Below are positions 44,650 through 64,000 of a stretch of 64,000 bases of DNA, piece after piece (within the stretch, counting starts at the first letter, position 1; the number at the start of each line of letters is the position of its first letter). The notes under the pieces were generated by a model. The model made no database searches. It saw nothing but the letters and a program-made list of their open reading frames with translations, and was not told the DNA's origin. Made by a program: the position numbers and the translations under genes. The DNA comes from Escherichia phage vB_EcoM_NBG1: sequence record MH243438.1. The stretch is one strand, 5' to 3'.

Positions 44650-45120
44650 TTAATCATGTTTCCACACCCCATCGGTATTTGACCAAAGTCGCTGATTATC
44701 TGATCCTCGCCACAGCTTTTTGGTCGGAAGATTTTTCTCATACTTCCCATCAATAATAACATCAACATATTTAAGCATTTCTAGTTGTTTAATATCTTCA
44801 AACTTATATCCTGTCCACAACCAAATGCTTTTACTGGGATAAAGATTTTTAATAGTTTGAACCACAGAGTGAATCACATCTCGGTTATCAGGATAGAGAG
44901 GGTCACCTCCGGTTATAGTCAATCCTTCTATATAATCATTATTCAAACATTCAATTAATTGTTCTAGTGTTTCACCAGTGAATGGAATACCATTTCTAGC
45001 ATTCCATGTTGATTTATTATAACACCCTTCACATTTATGCAAACAACCTGTAACGAAAAGAACGACCCTGCAACCAGGGCCATTCACAAAATCGCAAGGA
45101 TAAAATCTATCATAATTCAT
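44650..45120 (-). CDS. nrdG: anaerobic ribonucleotide reductase activating protein (radical SAM)
   Basis: 156 aa; radical SAM cluster CLHKCEGC; start overlaps nrdD stop. Confidence 0.85.
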   Translation of the reverse strand: MNYDRFYPCDFVNGPGCRVVLFVTGCLHKCEGCYNKSTWNARNGIPFTGETLEQLIECLNNDYIEGLTITGGDPLYPDNRDVIHSVVQTIKNLYPSKSIWLWTGYKFEDIKQLEMLKYVDVIIDGKYEKNLPTKKLWRGSDNQRLWSNTDGVWKHD

Positions 45121-46934
45121 TGGTGTTTAACCCTATGCATGATTTCTTTATTTTTACCGAGATTAAATCCGCGTTCGTTCGGATTTCCCAAATAGCCGCA
45201 TGTTCTTCTTATTGTGTTCATCTTTTTAGGATCAGTTTCTCCACAGATAGAACAAACAAATCCGTTTTCAGTAGGAGTCATTTCATGAGTACTTCCGCAT
45301 GTAAAACATTTATCTACTGGCATATTAACACCAAAATAATCTAAATGTTGTGCAGCATAATCCCACACGGCCTCAAGACCTTTTAAGTTATTTTTCATAT
45401 CAGGAAGTTCAACATAAGAAATGTGACCACCTGTCGCAATGAAATGATATGGCGCTTCACGAGAAATCTTTTCAAACGGAGTAATATTTTCTTCTACTGA
45501 AACGTGGAAACTGTTAGTGTACCAGCCTTTATCGGTAACATATTTTACACTTCCATATTTTTCTGTATCAAGTTTACAGAAGCGGTAACAAAGGTTTTCA
45601 GCAGGAGTCGAATATAAACTAAAAGCAAATCCAGTTCTTTCAGTCCATTGCTTAAGATGAGCATTCATTTTAGTTAAAATTTCTTGTCCAATATCACGAC
45701 CAACAAGAATATTCAATTCGTGAATACCAATGTATCCTAAAGACACTGAACTTCTACCGTTTTTAAATAACTCAATTATGTCGTCATCAGGTTTAAGACG
45801 AACCCCGAATGCACCTTCTTGGTAAAGAATAGGAGCAACAGTCGCTTTAACTCCTTTTAAGGAACTAATTCTACACATCAAAGCTTCAAAACACAGGTCC
45901 ATTCGTTCGTTAAATAGCTCAACAAATTTCTGTTCATTGAACTGTGTTCCAATATAAGAATCTAACGCAATACGAGGAAGATTCAGTGTTACAACACCAA
46001 GATTATTACGTCCATCAAGAATTTCATTACCAGTCGAATCTTTCCATACGCTCAAGAAACTACGGCAACCCATCGGAGAAACAGGAACTGAAGAACCGGT
46101 AATAGCTTTATTATTCTTAACCGAAATAATGTCAGGATACATTCTTTTGCTTGCACATTCTAACGCAAGTTGTTTAATATCATAGTTTGGATCATCTTTA
46201 TAAAGATTAACACCTTCTTCAACAAACATAACAAGCTTAGGGAAAATAGGAGTTATCCCATCACGACCAAGACCTTTAATACGATTTTTCAGAATTGCTT
46301 TCTGAATCATTCGTTCAGTCCAGTCAGTTCCCGTACCAAATGTAATTGTTACAAAAGGCGTTTGCCCGTTTGAACTAAAAAGAGTATTTACTTCATATTC
46401 ATAAGCTTGGAATGCATCGTATACATCTTTTTCTGTTTTAGATTGAGCATAATTCAACGCATCAGCGATTTGCCATTTTTCTGCATCCTCAATATGTTTT
46501 GCATAGGTGCGTTTAACATAAGGAGAAAGTACTTTATCTACATTAGCAAAAGTCGTTCCGCCGTATTGATGGGAAGCAACTTGTGCAGTAATTTGTGCCA
46601 TAACTGCAGTAGCAACACCAATCGATTTAGGCGTTTCAATTTGAGCATTGCCTAATTTAAATCCGTTCTCAAGCATCCCCTTTAAATCGACTAAACAGCA
46701 ATTAGTAAATGGAAGAGCAGGGGAATAATCAATATCGTGGAAATGGATAATTCCGCTTTCGTGTGCTTTCATAATAAAAGACGGGACCATATTTTTGGCA
46801 ATGTGTTTAGACACAATACCAGCCATAAGGTCCCGTTGAGTTGGAAAAACACGAGAATCTTTATTAGCATTCTCGTTTAAAAGGTCTTTATTAGTTTTAT
46901 GAATCAGTCCTTCAATTTCTTTTTCAATTTTCAT
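45117..46934 (-). CDS. nrdD: anaerobic ribonucleoside-triphosphate reductase
   Basis: 605 aa; glycyl radical site RRTCGYLG; C-terminal zinc site CFTCGS..CSICG; uninterrupted ORF (no intron). Confidence 0.92.
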   Translation of the reverse strand: MKIEKEIEGLIHKTNKDLLNENANKDSRVFPTQRDLMAGIVSKHIAKNMVPSFIMKAHESGIIHFHDIDYSPALPFTNCCLVDLKGMLENGFKLGNAQIETPKSIGVATAVMAQITAQVASHQYGGTTFANVDKVLSPYVKRTYAKHIEDAEKWQIADALNYAQSKTEKDVYDAFQAYEYEVNTLFSSNGQTPFVTITFGTGTDWTERMIQKAILKNRIKGLGRDGITPIFPKLVMFVEEGVNLYKDDPNYDIKQLALECASKRMYPDIISVKNNKAITGSSVPVSPMGCRSFLSVWKDSTGNEILDGRNNLGVVTLNLPRIALDSYIGTQFNEQKFVELFNERMDLCFEALMCRISSLKGVKATVAPILYQEGAFGVRLKPDDDIIELFKNGRSSVSLGYIGIHELNILVGRDIGQEILTKMNAHLKQWTERTGFAFSLYSTPAENLCYRFCKLDTEKYGSVKYVTDKGWYTNSFHVSVEENITPFEKISREAPYHFIATGGHISYVELPDMKNNLKGLEAVWDYAAQHLDYFGVNMPVDKCFTCGSTHEMTPTENGFVCSICGETDPKKMNTIRRTCGYLGNPNERGFNLGKNKEIMHRVKHQ

Positions 46935-59875: not shown

Positions 59876-60078
59876 TATTCTTCTACATGTTGTTTACGGC
59901 CTTTCTTATCAATAAAGGTATATTCAACGAATGTTCCGATGTAGTCTTTATCTACATCATGTGGACTATTAATTGGACATTTAGTACGACAAATGCGTTC
60001 CCATTGACGAATAATTACTGCCTTATTCTTTGGATCGTATGGATGTGGATAATGTATATTCATAATAACGGTTCCCAA
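59851..60078 (-). CDS. hypothetical protein
   Basis: 75-aa ORF. Confidence 0.5.
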   Translation of the reverse strand: MGTVIMNIHYPHPYDPKNKAVIIRQWERICRTKCPINSPHDVDKDYIGTFVEYTFIDKKGRKQHVEEYCLKVTWL

Positions 60079-60557
60079 TCAACAATCACAATTTCTAGTT
60101 TAGTAGAATACGTATCTAAAATCTCTTCGATGACATCCCAGTTTCCACCACCAATACCTGCACCAATTCTTGGCATATAAATTACAGGCTTTGTTATCTT
60201 ATTCTTTCCGAATTCATTTAATTCTATTATACAATTCATTAAAGCAGAGTACTCAAAATTAGGTCCCGGCTCAAACTGTGTATAAAGATTAAAGCAATAA
60301 GCTTTATAGGTCTTAAAATATTTTTCATAAACCGAATAAGTCCCGAGTTTAGACTTGTCTCCGAATTCGGTTTGAAGTTTATCGGCTTCTAAAATTTTTG
60401 GATAAGCCTTTGCTAATTGGCCTGCTACACCGGCGCCCATTGTATGAAAACAATTACACCCATGAGCAATATTATTACCTTTAGAAAACAGGGCGACAAT
60501 ATCGCCCTTGATATAGTTTTTAATCACTTGCTGCAAGTCCTCTATTATAAGAGTCAA
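60060..60557 (-). CDS. macro domain protein (putative ADP-ribose binding/hydrolase)
   Basis: 165 aa; macro-domain signatures NNIAHGCNCFHTMGAGVAGQ and PRIGAGIGGG. Confidence 0.7.
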   Translation of the reverse strand: MTLIIEDLQQVIKNYIKGDIVALFSKGNNIAHGCNCFHTMGAGVAGQLAKAYPKILEADKLQTEFGDKSKLGTYSVYEKYFKTYKAYCFNLYTQFEPGPNFEYSALMNCIIELNEFGKNKITKPVIYMPRIGAGIGGGNWDVIEEILDTYSTKLEIVIVDWEPLL

Positions 60558-60867
60558 CTAGACGGTCCACCATAGAATTGCATGCTGCCTTATCTTTAGG
60601 TTCCGCCACTGAGCATTCTAATATTTGCCATTTTTTATAGTATCTTTTAATTAAGGTAGACGCCTTGAACCTACTAGACGCCCCATCTTTTTCTCCGTCT
60701 TTATACGCGTATAACAATTTTTGTGAAAAATCTACTTTACACTCTTGACTTTTACCACAATAATCAGACGCCGTTCTGTTTGTATACTCCGTTACATCAG
60801 TATATGTAGTATTAGCAAGAGCGTTAAATGAAACCAAGCTAACTATTAAAGCCAACATTTTGGTCAT
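60520..60867 (-). CDS. small secreted protein with 4 Cys (vs position)
   Basis: 115 aa; signal peptide MTKMLALIVSLVSFNALA. Confidence 0.55.
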   Translation of the reverse strand: MTKMLALIVSLVSFNALANTTYTDVTEYTNRTASDYCGKSQECKVDFSQKLLYAYKDGEKDGASSRFKASTLIKRYYKKWQILECSVAEPKDKAACNSMVDRLVDSYNRGLAASD

Positions 60868-61406
60868 TCTTTTATTTCCAGTAGTTTATTTGATTTAAGG
60901 TAATTAGCCTTTTCTAGGACTTCAGAAGCATATTTACTTCCAGCACTTGTCTTCCATCCCGCATTATATGAGGATATAGCTTTTCTTATATCCCCGTTAT
61001 GTATATTTAACCAATAAGAAAATTCGATATAAGCCCATCTGGCTGAATTAGACCGCTTAGATAGCATTTTCTTAATTTGGGCATCAGTCATATTATAACC
61101 AAGCTGGTTAATTCTTGCCCTCATTGTTGGTAGATAATTTTGGAACATTCCATACGCATGGTGACCTTTCTTATCTTTAAGATTAATACCGGCAGATGAT
61201 TCCTGCCATAGTATTGCGGCCATTATGTATCCAAGTCCTTTCTTATGCATATTTTCATGCGTTTTAAATTTTCCGTCCTTAGAAAACTGTTCCCCAAACT
61301 GATAAGCATAATTCAAGTTATCGAGTTGGACATTACTAAAAGTATGCTCGGAGCTATGTGCTGATAACGAAAGAGCAAATAGACCAGCGAGTAGTGCTTT
61401 TCTCAT
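60864..61406 (-). CDS. secreted lytic transglycosylase (SLT domain)
   Basis: 180 aa; signal peptide; SLT motifs LWQESS, AYGMFQ, SYNAG. Confidence 0.7.
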   Translation of the reverse strand: MRKALLAGLFALSLSAHSSEHTFSNVQLDNLNYAYQFGEQFSKDGKFKTHENMHKKGLGYIMAAILWQESSAGINLKDKKGHHAYGMFQNYLPTMRARINQLGYNMTDAQIKKMLSKRSNSARWAYIEFSYWLNIHNGDIRKAISSYNAGWKTSAGSKYASEVLEKANYLKSNKLLEIKE

Positions 61407-61414
61407 GTTTACCT

Positions 61415-61873
61415 CTAGATTTTAATCACTGCTTTAGAAGCTTTTCCTGGTAGTCGTTTACTGTTAATAATAGCCATTCTGCATTGAAGAGTCTTCATTT
61501 TGAATGCCGGATTTTCGCGACAAACTGTAAGTCCTAACCAAAGATTTCCGTCAGTTATTTCTAAACGGCCTGGACGATACTCGACACCTTCGACAAAATC
61601 TTCATCAACATCTGGACGTGCCGGCATTGATAAAAATTCTGCAACTTCTTTAACGTGATTTTTTACTTTATGAAATAATTCAAAAACGTAATTCTCATCT
61701 ATTTCTCTCTGGATGGCACGATCTAAGAGATGTTGAGAATACTTGATATGAAAGCCTGGTAGTCCAAGAGACTTTGCAGCATCTTTTATACCGGCATTTA
61801 TTTTGCGGAACTCCGTTTCAAAGATTCGACGGAGTTTATTACGGCGGATAAAAACTTCCGAATTGATAGTCAT
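61415..61873 (-). CDS. regB: RegB endoribonuclease
   Basis: 152 aa from MTINSEVFIRRNKLRR, near-identical to remembered T4 RegB; ORF-track start at 61897 is a TTG. Confidence 0.85.
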   Translation of the reverse strand: MTINSEVFIRRNKLRRIFETEFRKINAGIKDAAKSLGLPGFHIKYSQHLLDRAIQREIDENYVFELFHKVKNHVKEVAEFLSMPARPDVDEDFVEGVEYRPGRLEITDGNLWLGLTVCRENPAFKMKTLQCRMAIINSKRLPGKASKAVIKI

Positions 61874-61880
61874 TTTGATT

Positions 61881-61930
61881 TCTCCTCTAGTTGACAAGTC
61901 TATAGTAACACAACTAGAGGAGAAGTAAAC
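61881..61930 (-). promoter_or_regulatory. regB early promoter (GTTTAC-N17-TACTAT) with perfect 13-bp spacer/SD inverted repeat
   Basis: arms 61881-61893 (regB SD GAGGAG) and 61911-61923 (spacer); -10 at 61902-61907; -35 at 61925-61930. Confidence 0.6.
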
Positions 61931-62229
61931 TACTCTTTGAAAGGAATTAACTTTTTAACTGCTTTAGATACTTCGTCACGAACCTGATGGAAGTTCTTGA
62001 GCTGTTCAAGGCGTTGTTCGTAATACGCAATCTCATCTTCTTCAAGACAATCGTCAGCGTCTTCTTTCAGATATGCCTTGTACTCATTAAAGAGGGCCCA
62101 TAGGCGGTTCTCAAAGTCATCAAGGCTTTGAATTTTCTTGTGCTTCGGAACAAGGCCAAAAGGATTGCTTTCAGTTATGCGTCTAGATGCTTCATAATGA
62201 GTTCCAAAGCCTGATAGGATTTGAGCCAT
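61930..62229 (-). CDS. hypothetical protein
   Basis: 99-aa ORF. Confidence 0.55.
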
Positions 62230-62495
62230 TAGTATTTTTCCTCAGGTCGAAATACTGCACGACATGCCCACATGCTGGCTTCTTTTAGATGTTGCTTAGC
62301 ATACTTAAGAGCCTGTACTGCATCCATATCTTCTTTGGTTTGTTGCTCTGTTTCATTTTCTTTCAAGATATATGCTTCTTCAATCAGAGCATCAAACAAC
62401 AATCCAAGACGGACTTCTGCATCTTTAATAGCGTTCACTTTACCGATTTTATCATCGGTATGCGGCTTGTAGCCTTTGATGTCTTCAATCGACAT
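62229..62495 (-). CDS. hypothetical protein
   Basis: 88 aa from internal ATG 62495 ([15 protein letters not shown]..), SD GAGGAAA; longer version overlaps the upstream ORF. Confidence 0.45.
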
Positions 62496-62709
62496 AAGGA
62501 ATTTCCTCATCGGTGGCAAGGTCATATTCGACCAATTGGATAGGCTCATTAATACCATATCCACGTACAGTGATATCAGTTGCCGGATAGTTTCCAGTAA
62601 TATCACCCATTCTAAATGCTTCAATGAATGATTGCTCGCCTGAGCAACTAAACCAGGCGGCAAAACATTTTAAAACATCTTCAGACCCTTCTATAATCAA
62701 TTTAGCCAT
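62485..62709 (-). CDS. hypothetical protein
   Basis: 74-aa acidic ORF. Confidence 0.5.
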   Translation of the reverse strand: MAKLIIEGSEDVLKCFAAWFSCSGEQSFIEAFRMGDITGNYPATDITVRGYGINEPIQLVEYDLATDEEIPYVD

Positions 62710-63071
62710 TATAGACTCTCAGTAAAGGTACGAGCGATAACGTCGCGCTGCTGTTCCGGAGTCAGAGAGTTAAAGCGAACTGCATAACCGGATACACGGA
62801 TGGTCAACTGCGGATATTTTTCTGGATGCTTAACTGCATCTTCCAGAGTTTCACGACGCAGAACATTAACGTTCAGGTGTTGACCACCTTCAATTTTAAC
62901 TTTAGGTTGATGTTCAATTTCAATTTCACGGGCATTCAAACCGTAGAAAATTTCCGGGTCTACAATAGCGTCTTCTTTAAAAGTCTTAGAGACAATAATC
63001 CGGGCTTGAGTACCGTCTTCAAAATAAATAGTGCCTTTGTGTGTGCCTTCAAGAATTTGATATGCTTTCAT
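62709..63071 (-). CDS. autonomous glycyl radical cofactor (GrcA/YfiD-like)
   Basis: 120 aa; glycyl-radical motif [27 protein letters not shown]; C-terminal half closely resembles remembered E. coli GrcA. Confidence 0.85.
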
Positions 63072-63077
63072 ATAACC

Positions 63078-63386
63078 TCAATTAGAAAATAAATTTATCC
63101 AAGTTTTTTCTTTAATCAAAAATGGGTCGGAATTAAACGCCATTAAACTTTGAGTGATTAATCCCTTAAATGGCCCATCAATAAATTCCATTTTGAAATG
63201 TGGAATACTAGTCATCAACCGTGCATTAGGAGCAGTACAAAGAACCTGCTGCCCTGCGAACGGACCTTTAGTCAAACGGTATCGTTTAGGTTTAAAATGG
63301 TAAATCTCGTAATTTTCTACAAGGGCCCTTTTATTGCATACTGGGCTGGTATAACAATATTCAAAAACTTCAATAGTGGTCATCAT
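63078..63386 (-). CDS. hypothetical protein
   Basis: 102-aa ORF. Confidence 0.55.
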   Translation of the reverse strand: MMTTIEVFEYCYTSPVCNKRALVENYEIYHFKPKRYRLTKGPFAGQQVLCTAPNARLMTSIPHFKMEFIDGPFKGLITQSLMAFNSDPFLIKEKTWINLFSN

Positions 63387-63922
63387 TGCATTCCAATCAC
63401 AAAAAATTGAGGACGAGCATTACCGCCGATGCAATATTTGCTTTTGCAACAGTGTTGGACTGTTTTAATATGTACATTGTAAATCTTATCCATATCAGGA
63501 GCTTTAATAGGCTCGTCAATTATATACAGAATACGAGAAAGCGTTAATCCACGGAATTTAGAACCTTCATTGCCAATAAAACTACGAACAGAATCAGTAA
63601 ATAAACGGAATCGAATATCGTCGCTAGAATAACGAGAAAATTCTTTTTCAATGTTGCCAGCAGAAATTTTAGCATAAGCTGAAGTATTAGAAAGAACAAT
63701 AACTGTTCCGCCATCATACAGCCAATTAGCAGCAAAGTTAGTCACAGCAATTGATTTACCTGATTGTCGGCCGCCGTCTAAACGAAGTGTACAGTACTGC
63801 TTGAGTACGTCTTCAAATGGTGGGACGTAACCGTTCTTACAAATTTCTTCTACTCTAGCATCAGAATGGTGTGTAAAAGCATTCATCAGGGATAGATAAG
63901 GTCCAGTTAAAAATGTTCTCAT
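63383..63922 (-). CDS. hypothetical protein with P-loop-like motif
   Basis: 179 aa from ATG 63922 (MRTFLTG..); GGRQSGKS Walker-A-like segment. Confidence 0.5.
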   Translation of the reverse strand: MRTFLTGPYLSLMNAFTHHSDARVEEICKNGYVPPFEDVLKQYCTLRLDGGRQSGKSIAVTNFAANWLYDGGTVIVLSNTSAYAKISAGNIEKEFSRYSSDDIRFRLFTDSVRSFIGNEGSKFRGLTLSRILYIIDEPIKAPDMDKIYNVHIKTVQHCCKSKYCIGGNARPQFFVIGMQ

Positions 63923-64000
63923 ATTATTTCTCTTAAGGTTGGGGCCCTTCCGTGGCACATGTTAGGTCCTTCGACTCGCTATGTAAACCCATTACCGCAT

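Follow-up and report, generated by a model that had tools for sequence, protein, structure and literature searches.

Two proteins have been validated as 'spare parts' for pyruvate formate-lyase (PFL), Escherichia coli YfiD (also known as GrcA) and bacteriophage T4 Y06I, according to PMC8683613 (JBC, 2021), which cites Wagner et al. (2001; BBRC 285:456). As described there, both are activated by the PFL-activating enzyme (PFL-AE), form a complex with cleaved PFL and restore PFL that has been cut by O2 at Gly734. The same paper describes residues 61–127 of YfiD as its structured part, which takes the place of the segment that PFL has lost; residues 1–60 are disordered and are dispensable for catalysis, while improving binding to cleaved PFL and giving approximately fourfold better radical installation. 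In evolutionary terms, the closest described analogue of the locus treated here is intragenic recombination in cyanophage psbA and psbD (Sullivan et al., 2006; PMC1484495), where the phage copy of a host metabolic gene swaps segments with the host gene and host-to-phage transfers cluster by host. We have analysed the gene vs.6, the counterpart of Y06I, in a 64,000-nucleotide stretch (the window) of Escherichia phage vB_EcoM_NBG1 (sequence record MH243438.1), a T4-like phage of the genus Mosigvirus. The gene and its function are already known as T4 Y06I, and what we add is nucleotide-level evidence, a modest but clean new detail: in the T-even phages and in Jiaodavirus, gene conversion has recently laid a host-specific patch over the C-terminal domain, which in the other lineages is kept by constraint alone. 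A preliminary description of this DNA missed that the gene had been named and biochemically studied in T4, and also that its N-terminal half is a conserved phage-specific module and not junk.

The vs.6 coding sequence lies at 62709..63071 on the minus strand, with an ATG start, 120 encoded amino acids and a TAA stop in the list of open reading frames (ORFs). Its product is identical to T4 Y06I (NP_049730) at 113 of 120 residues and has the same length; the two are orthologues at the same gene position, and both have E. coli-type DNA in the C-terminal half. Six of the seven substitutions fall in the N-terminal half, the other being R73H, which is found in T4 alone, and six synonymous changes separate the two C-terminal halves. 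All 363 nt are 100% identical in Escherichia phage vB_EcoM-ZQ3, and megablast matches the gene to 730 phage records. The two halves of the protein relate very differently to the host cofactor. Codons 1–60 (62892..63071, minus strand; the N-half) encode a phage-type GrcA N-terminal region that is seven residues shorter than that of the host; of the first 58 residues, E. coli GrcA shares only 18. Codons 61–120 (62712..62891, minus strand; the C-half) encode the glycyl radical domain, and here the amino acids are those of E. coli GrcA 68–127 at 60 of 60 positions, including the RVSGYAV motif (global alignment with grcA from a complete genome, L002:1347–1730). The motif is located at 62798 on the minus strand (residues 92–98) and contains Gly95 (codon at 62787..62789, minus strand), the predicted radical-bearing glycine, which is equivalent to Gly102 of GrcA and Gly734 of PflB on the basis of the alignment with PFL residues 696–759 and of PMC8683613. 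Gly95 is invariant in an alignment of 37 phage and host sequences.

The likeness of the C-half extends to the DNA. The window differs from E. coli grcA at six of the 180 nt (174/180 identical), all of the differences being synonymous (synonymous divergence dS of 0.147 and nonsynonymous divergence dN of 0, estimates that carry wide errors on a tract of only 180 nt). T4 differs at three positions (dS of 0.046) and phage OES_C-2 at one; for comparison, E. coli and Citrobacter, the nearest sampled genus, differ at 13 positions (dS of 0.36) and the dS between E. coli and Salmonella is 1.0. Half of the six differences in the window are in the last 7 nt, so that only three remain over C-half positions 1–173, and the longest exact run against E. 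coli grcA is 88 nt for the window and 138 nt for T4. A neighbour-joining tree of the 180 nt places the window, T4, E. coli and Escherichia sp. in one clade with a bootstrap value of 492/500. Five of the six changes specific to the window in this half are GC to AT, the direction in which amelioration would act at the 37% GC of the phage genome. We delimit the Escherichia-derived tract, the gene-conversion patch, to 62719..62893 (minus strand), with a 5' junction at codon 60/61 and a 3' junction three to four codons before the stop.

The matching tract is found in every one of the 5,426 complete E. coli genomes, at 90–99% identity, which makes it unlikely that the host alleles used here are atypical ones derived from phage; no genome has a copy identical to that of the phage, and the best match to the window is 96.3%. 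The tract is the sole megablast match of the 64-kb window to these genomes, and its GC fraction is 0.46 compared with 0.37 for the whole window. A stretch that stands out in both of these ways might be suspected of being an assembly chimera, host-DNA contamination or an acquisition during laboratory propagation on E. coli. However, an E. coli grcA query retrieves it from 752 independent phage records by megablast (624 of them at least 95% identical), with the match starting at grcA nt 200 in 57 of 60 phage rows among the matches listed; the gene that holds it in frame is conserved, its phage-specific and AT-biased synonymous changes occur in no allele of the 5,426 E. coli genomes, and it is still present in phages isolated on Yersinia or Salmonella. 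An artefact is almost certainly not the explanation.

A second phage genus shows the same arrangement with a different donor. Klebsiella phage pKp20 (Jiaodavirus), which belongs to the same subfamily as the window, has a phage-type N-half joined to a C-half with a high GC fraction at third codon positions (0.60). This C-half is 97.0% identical to K. pneumoniae grcA over 167 nt, compared with 92.9% for K. aerogenes and 87% for E. coli; the match to K. pneumoniae begins at the same codon as the Escherichia tract, is exact over the first 101 nt of the C-half and stops approximately 13 nt before the stop codon. E. coli and K. pneumoniae grcA are distinguished by 21 diagnostic sites in the C-half. 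The window and T4 both have the E. coli state at all 21 sites, with none in the K. pneumoniae state and none in neither, whereas pKp20 has two E. coli and 18 K. pneumoniae states (one neither) and pzk-kv4 has five and 15 (one neither). RB16 and 05F are mixed, with 12 and ten E. coli states, five and seven K. pneumoniae states, respectively, and four sites each that fit neither. The E. coli-type and K. pneumoniae-type tracts share their boundaries, and host-matched replacement has thus taken place independently at least twice; the event in Jiaodavirus brings in two Klebsiella-type residues (LLDAVEH). An earlier comparison using grcA from a Klebsiella metagenome-assembled genome was ambiguous (Klebsiella phages 89–91% identical to it versus 85–89% to E. 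coli); this ambiguity was resolved by K. pneumoniae reference genes taken from chromosomes that are labelled as plasmids in PLSDB. Among the records of that database (CP125156.1, L098; LR134122.1, L099) a 5.37-Mb K. pneumoniae replicon bears the label 'plasmid unnamed2', and several megabase-sized E. coli records are likewise filed as plasmids; such records are chromosomes or chromosome pieces. The grcA of K. aerogenes NCTC10006 is given as a truncated 324-nt 'pyruvate formate-lyase' in which an extra A within a GAAAAAT run causes a frameshift; either a sequencing error or a pseudogene is the probable reason.

The remaining phage lineages keep the protein without the DNA. The homologues in RB16 and other members of Pseudotevenvirus, in Slopekvirus, Karamvirus and Krischvirus, in T5-like phages (Tequintavirus) and in T4-like phages of Aeromonas and Vibrio are of the same family and architecture, but they lack host-identical DNA, differing at 27–50 of 180 nt from every sampled host gene, and the C-halves of some are closer to PflB (ending ...TFTQAM). 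No close host DNA was found for the copies of any of these groups among 62 host genes. These lineages bear directly on whether constraint alone, that is purifying selection and the shared codon preference of a highly expressed gene after one ancient acquisition with no recent exchange, could account for the host-like C-half. The 60 residues are nearly invariant, being conserved at 56–60 positions from Haemophilus to E. coli with 41 positions invariant in the 37-sequence alignment, and RB16, Nando and 05F retain 58–60 of them without close host DNA. RB16, which is also a phage of E. coli, matches E. coli GrcA at 60 of 60 residues yet differs at 31 of 180 nt (dS of about 2), and constraint therefore suffices for amino-acid identity. 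It does not reproduce the nucleotide pattern: under the same constraint and in the same host RB16 has its 31 differences, where the window has six, T4 three and Citrobacter 13. Nor does it fit the 21 of 21 sites in the E. coli state and the 15–18 of 21 in the K. pneumoniae state in the Klebsiella phages, the bootstrap value of 492/500 or the exact runs of 88–138 nt. The low divergence is not intrinsic to the C-half, because grcA genes of different hosts, compared with one another, give much the same dS for either half. We consider constraint alone to be very unlikely.

The preliminary description had noted that the last 60 or so residues, RVSGYAV among them, looked very close to E. coli GrcA/YfiD, and had offered host-derived acquisition or strong constraint as the reason. 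The first point turns out to be exact, and alignment to host GrcA, the check that it proposed, gave no low identity (60/60 residues and 174/180 nt in the C-half). The two reasons are compatible and both hold: there is strong constraint everywhere, as RB16 attests, plus recent host-derived DNA in the T-even phages and Jiaodavirus, as the DNA of the window and of T4 attests for host origin.

The N-half has another history. Its DNA is 51% identical to E. coli grcA, yet homology to the N-terminal half of the host protein is still evident (35% over 40 residues in BLASTP of the halves, E = 3e-6). The phage-type N-half is common to RB16-type phages and phages of Klebsiella and Enterobacter, and is recognisable in the genera Jiaodavirus, Karamvirus, Slopekvirus and Pseudotevenvirus. 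Between T4 and the window it has a dN of 0.047 and a dS of 0.39, indicating purifying selection. In a triplet test of the window, pKp20 and E. coli, the window shares 66 N-half sites with the phage alone and 20 with E. coli alone; in the C-half the corresponding numbers are two and 25 (Fisher p = 9e-11). The maximum-χ2 breakpoint falls at alignment columns 199–207, the C-half beginning at column 202 (codon 60/61), and 0 of 10,000 permutations reached the observed value. The controls RB16 and 05F showed no switch in the diagnostic-site test or in the triplet and breakpoint tests. At the other end, RB16 and 05F share with the window its last codons, GAG AGT CTA, where E. coli has GAA AGC CTG, and the final informative sites revert to the phage type; the clustering of phage–host differences in the last 7 nt has p = 5e-13, a value inflated by the relatedness of the five phages compared. 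A host-like tract flanked on both sides by phage-type sequence within one reading frame points to gene conversion by homologous recombination and not to capture of a free fragment. Between T4 and the window the N-half has the higher dS (0.39, against 0.15 for the C-half), although only at p = 0.06.

Megablast alignments between phages and E. coli run on for 3–10 nt beyond the stop codon (window 62700..62711; E. coli L002:1728–1740), with TAA(T)GGCT(T)AA in common. The sequence here is TAATGGCTAAA in the phage and TAAGGCTTAAG in E. coli, and the phage part includes the ATG GCT AAA start of vs.5. We considered whether this was a transferred 3' flank and rejected it: the match is too short to serve as evidence and may be chance or a remnant, and the phage-type last codons argue against it.

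These data also bear on the idea that a whole grcA gene was captured recently and that its N-half then diverged very fast in the phage. The homology of the N-half to that of the host (35% over 40 residues) does indicate that the gene once came from a grcA-like ancestor. However, the N-half type (MKAYQILEG...ARxIVSK...) is present in Tequatrovirus, Mosigvirus, Jiaodavirus, Karamvirus, Slopekvirus and Pseudotevenvirus, with synonymous sites that are mutually saturated. Where the amino acid is the same as in E. coli the codon differs at eight of 18 positions in the N-half and at six of 60 in the C-half (Fisher p = 0.002), and the dN/dS of about 0.12 between the T4 and window N-halves is that of purifying selection and not of runaway divergence. 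We exclude whole-gene capture, which we regard as extremely improbable, because the N-half type predates the split of the phage genera and because its synonymous sites are more diverged. In our reading, homologous recombination replaced a tract of approximately 175 bp over the glycyl radical domain with grcA DNA from Escherichia, and both junctions lie within vs.6. The C-half similarity kept by constraint would supply the homology for such overwriting, and the N-half would be too diverged to recombine. In the E. coli phages the conversion changes no amino acid and so may be neutral.

The family assignment is straightforward. Pfam Gly_radical (PF01228) matches residues 59–101 (E = 2e-18, 67.3 bits against a cutoff of 22.2), and the PHROGs profile phrog_1209 matches over the full length (E = 6.1e-63, residues 1–120 against positions 1–121 of 121), which places the protein in that group. 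With phmmer against the PDB the top match is 6OWR, the NMR structure of E. coli GrcA/YfiD (E = 2e-42), followed by PFL residues 696–759 (E = 3e-26). The protein has the features that define GrcA/YfiD (TIGR04365/IPR011140): it is a small stand-alone protein of 120 residues with a C-terminal PF01228 domain, and that domain is PFL-like and contains RVSGYAV. It does not belong with PFL itself, as the pyruvate formate-lyase model TIGR01255 gives 89.6 bits against a cutoff of 994 and aligns at profile positions 679–744 only. Judged by its sequence, the vs.6 protein is a GrcA-type autonomous glycyl radical cofactor in the structural sense. Homologues are widespread in phages of enteric bacteria, tblastn finding 1,588 phage records that include T5-like, Aeromonas and Vibrio phages, and 7,834 protein clusters match the vs.6 protein at E ≤ 1e-10.

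Compared with E. coli GrcA/YfiD (P68066; PDB entry 6OWR), the phage protein has the same two-part architecture and identical C-terminal 60 residues, including the radical glycine loop and the C-terminal helix, and the N-half residues Gln5, Arg24 and Asp34 (phage numbering) are kept. It differs in that its N-half is approximately 31% identical, seven residues shorter and without the DDLLNSFWLL stretch of the host form, and in being expressed from a phage operon, whereas host grcA has its own locus between ung and eamB. The C-terminal glycyl radical domain of PflB (residues 696–759; PDB entries 1H16 and 2PFL) is homologous and aligns with window residues 57–120 (E = 3e-26), but PflB has 759 residues compared with 120 in the phage protein, from which the barrel with the catalytic Cys418/Cys419 is absent. 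In an AlphaFold2 (AF2) model (m747f4c42ba7f) residues 1–50 (window 62922..63071) are predicted as a four-stranded β-sheet with a pLDDT of about 90, and the linker 56–69 is of low confidence. Foldseek with this model returns 6OWR with 100% identity over 60 residues, the significant matches lying in the C-half alone; for the N-half it returned nothing significant, and KOW-like matches with E = 0.2–0.8 were disregarded. We treat the N-half model as a lead only, because the corresponding region of YfiD is disordered by NMR.

By orthology with Y06I, host PflA would install the radical on Gly95. The C-terminal domain would then dock into host PFL that had been cleaved by oxygen at Gly734 and replace the lost radical loop, so that conversion of pyruvate to acetyl-CoA and formate, and hence the fermentative supply of ATP, would be restored; active PFL may in this way sustain acetyl-CoA and ATP through oxygen fluctuations in the gut. 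A copy of the phage's own is plausible because host transcription shutoff of the T4 type would prevent induction of grcA during infection. The preliminary description had proposed a cofactor able to rescue oxygen-damaged PFL and had linked it to nrdD and nrdG; the former agrees with the rescue reported for the orthologous T4 Y06I in PMC8683613, and for the latter both genes are indeed found in the window by Pfam. The anaerobic ribonucleotide reductase gene nrdD (45117..46934, minus strand; NRDD E = 1e-170, Gly_radical E = 1e-25; motif RRTCGYLG) encodes the other glycyl radical protein of the phage, and nrdG (44650..45120, minus strand; Fer4_12 E = 1.5e-48, Radical_SAM E = 1.5e-7) encodes the radical-SAM activase of NrdD.

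The presence of nrdD and nrdG in the same window, and an N-half that is conserved, phage-specific, strongly unlike that of the host and predicted by AF2 to fold, leave a slim chance that the vs.6 protein does another job: it might titrate host PflA, acting as a decoy or radical sink, or it might serve the phage NrdD as a spare part. The N-half of YfiD governs binding and activation in the account given in PMC8683613, and partner preference could differ accordingly. The radical domain, however, is of the GrcA/PFL type (RVSGYAV...TFTESL; PFL C-terminus E = 3e-26) and not of the NrdD type (RRTCGYLG), and T4 Y06I is reported, in that same paper, to restore O2-cleaved PFL together with PFL-AE.

Taken together, it is very likely that the gene is the Mosigvirus orthologue of vs.6/Y06I, that it encodes an autonomous glycyl radical cofactor for PFL rescue and that it is a mosaic with a host-derived C-half. 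Somewhat less firmly, we think it probable that vs.6 is a standing target of host-to-phage gene conversion, a domain repeatedly overwritten so that the tract signs the long-term host of the phage lineage. Constraint on the protein would keep approximately 180 bp at no less than 80% identity to host grcA, the N-half, non-homologous for this purpose, would be left untouched, and the signature of the long-term host would be Escherichia in Tequatrovirus and Mosigvirus and K. pneumoniae in Jiaodavirus. The tract groups with the host, has a supported breakpoint and shows low dS to its donor (0.05–0.15 to E. coli), as expected of a recombinant tract. Unlike the case of cyanophage psbA and psbD, that of vs.6 concerns a virulent T-even phage of enterobacteria and a small gene in which only one domain is replaced; the boundaries of the replacement are common to two phage genera, and the rest of the gene has stayed phage-specific. 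We found no description of host–phage conversion at vs.6/grcA in the searchable literature, which leaves most subscription journals outside its reach.

Several observations weigh against these readings. Tequatroviruses isolated on Yersinia and Salmonella retain the Escherichia tract, and Salmonella grcA reaches at most 83.8% identity to any of the phages, with no Salmonella-type tract found among them; host tracking would on these grounds be coarse and infrequent and not rapid. Within the T-even group, either one event with later phage-to-phage spread or several events may lie behind the tract, the higher N-half dS between T4 and the window reaching only p = 0.06. The tract is also short, with wide errors on its divergence. 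The NCBIfam GrcA equivalog TIGR04365 scores the protein at 159.1 bits, under its curated cutoff of 170 (E. coli GrcA scores 233.9). This shortfall arises because the N-half is divergent, the profile match covering residues 18–120 only, and the T4 orthologue is nonetheless named GrcA in RefSeq. PFL rescue by the window protein is predicted from its approximately 94% identity to Y06I and the 100% identity of its functional domain to E. coli GrcA, and a benefit of vs.6 to the phage is putative.

In its genomic setting, vs.6 sits between vs.7 and vs.5 on the same strand in the tk-vs-regB-vs.x-denV early region, as annotated in Mosigvirus mar005P1 and T4. The flanking ORFs of the window, at 63078..63386 (phrog_2049) and 62485..62709 (phrog_1986), follow the gene order of mar005P1 and T4. 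A Shine–Dalgarno sequence, GAGG, can be read at 63076..63079 (minus strand), 4 nt upstream of the vs.6 ATG and overlapping the TGA stop of vs.7, and a ribosome-binding site is annotated at the equivalent place in Klebsiella phage pKp20 and Citrobacter phage Miller. The TAA stop of vs.6 overlaps the ATG of the next gene as TAATG. These overlaps at both ends place vs.6 in a compact operon whose genes are probably coupled in translation. Scanning 61800–64000 for promoters and terminators gave five promoter-like sites compared with 6.2 expected, which is uninformative on regulation. Around vs.6 the identity between the window and T4 swings from approximately 33% to 100% over a few hundred bases: 60-nt windows are 98–100% identical in vs.8 (63386..63960), and vs.7, vs.5 and vs.4 have gapped or diverged stretches of 33–63%, which looks like phage–phage mosaicism. 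Further along on the minus strand, a 165-residue ORF at 60060..60557 corresponds to T4 tk.4 and matches the Macro (ADP-ribose-binding/hydrolase) domain in Pfam (E = 1.6e-6), the T4 annotation being a phosphatase with an A1pp motif; a 180-residue ORF at 60864..61406 (minus strand), at the position of T4 vs.1, has a hydrophobic signal-like N-terminus, MRKALLAGLFALSLSAHS, and no Pfam match at E ≤ 0.001.

The annotation of this gene is inconsistent. Phage copies of vs.6 in GenBank are variously called 'pyruvate formate-lyase', '2-ketobutyrate formate-lyase', 'putative acetyltransferase-related protein', 'hypothetical protein' and 'autonomous glycyl radical cofactor', and PHROGs lists phrog_1209 as of unknown function. 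The labels 'pyruvate formate-lyase' and 'acetyltransferase' are misnomers. A 118-residue phage-type protein (P0007) goes by the name 'GrcA [Escherichia coli]', but its contig of 167,969 bp suggests that the genome of a T4-like phage was deposited as E. coli. The enterobacterial grcA on a contig labelled Vagococcus sp. WN89Y is 91% identical to that of E. coli, suggesting contamination or mislabelling.

The analysis therefore flags an annotation problem, with many phage copies that are mislabelled and that the NCBIfam equivalog narrowly misses. As to the biology, vs.6 is a piece of textbook T4 biology, in which enteric phages invest in host fermentation under fluctuating oxygen beside an anaerobic ribonucleotide reductase of their own. 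Two causes of host-likeness that are easily run together are separated at this locus: amino-acid identity reflects constraint, as in the RB16-type phages, and nucleotide identity reflects import of host-specific DNA, as in the T-even phages and Jiaodavirus. The locus is small and easily sequenced, and it can be used to ask how often virulent phages recombine with the host chromosome and how far the tract serves as a record of the host. If vs.6 is indeed a standing target of conversion, the T-even phages would carry a built-in marker of host history, and the tract would offer a natural and measurable case in which a virulent phage, one that degrades the DNA of its host, recombines with the host chromosome.

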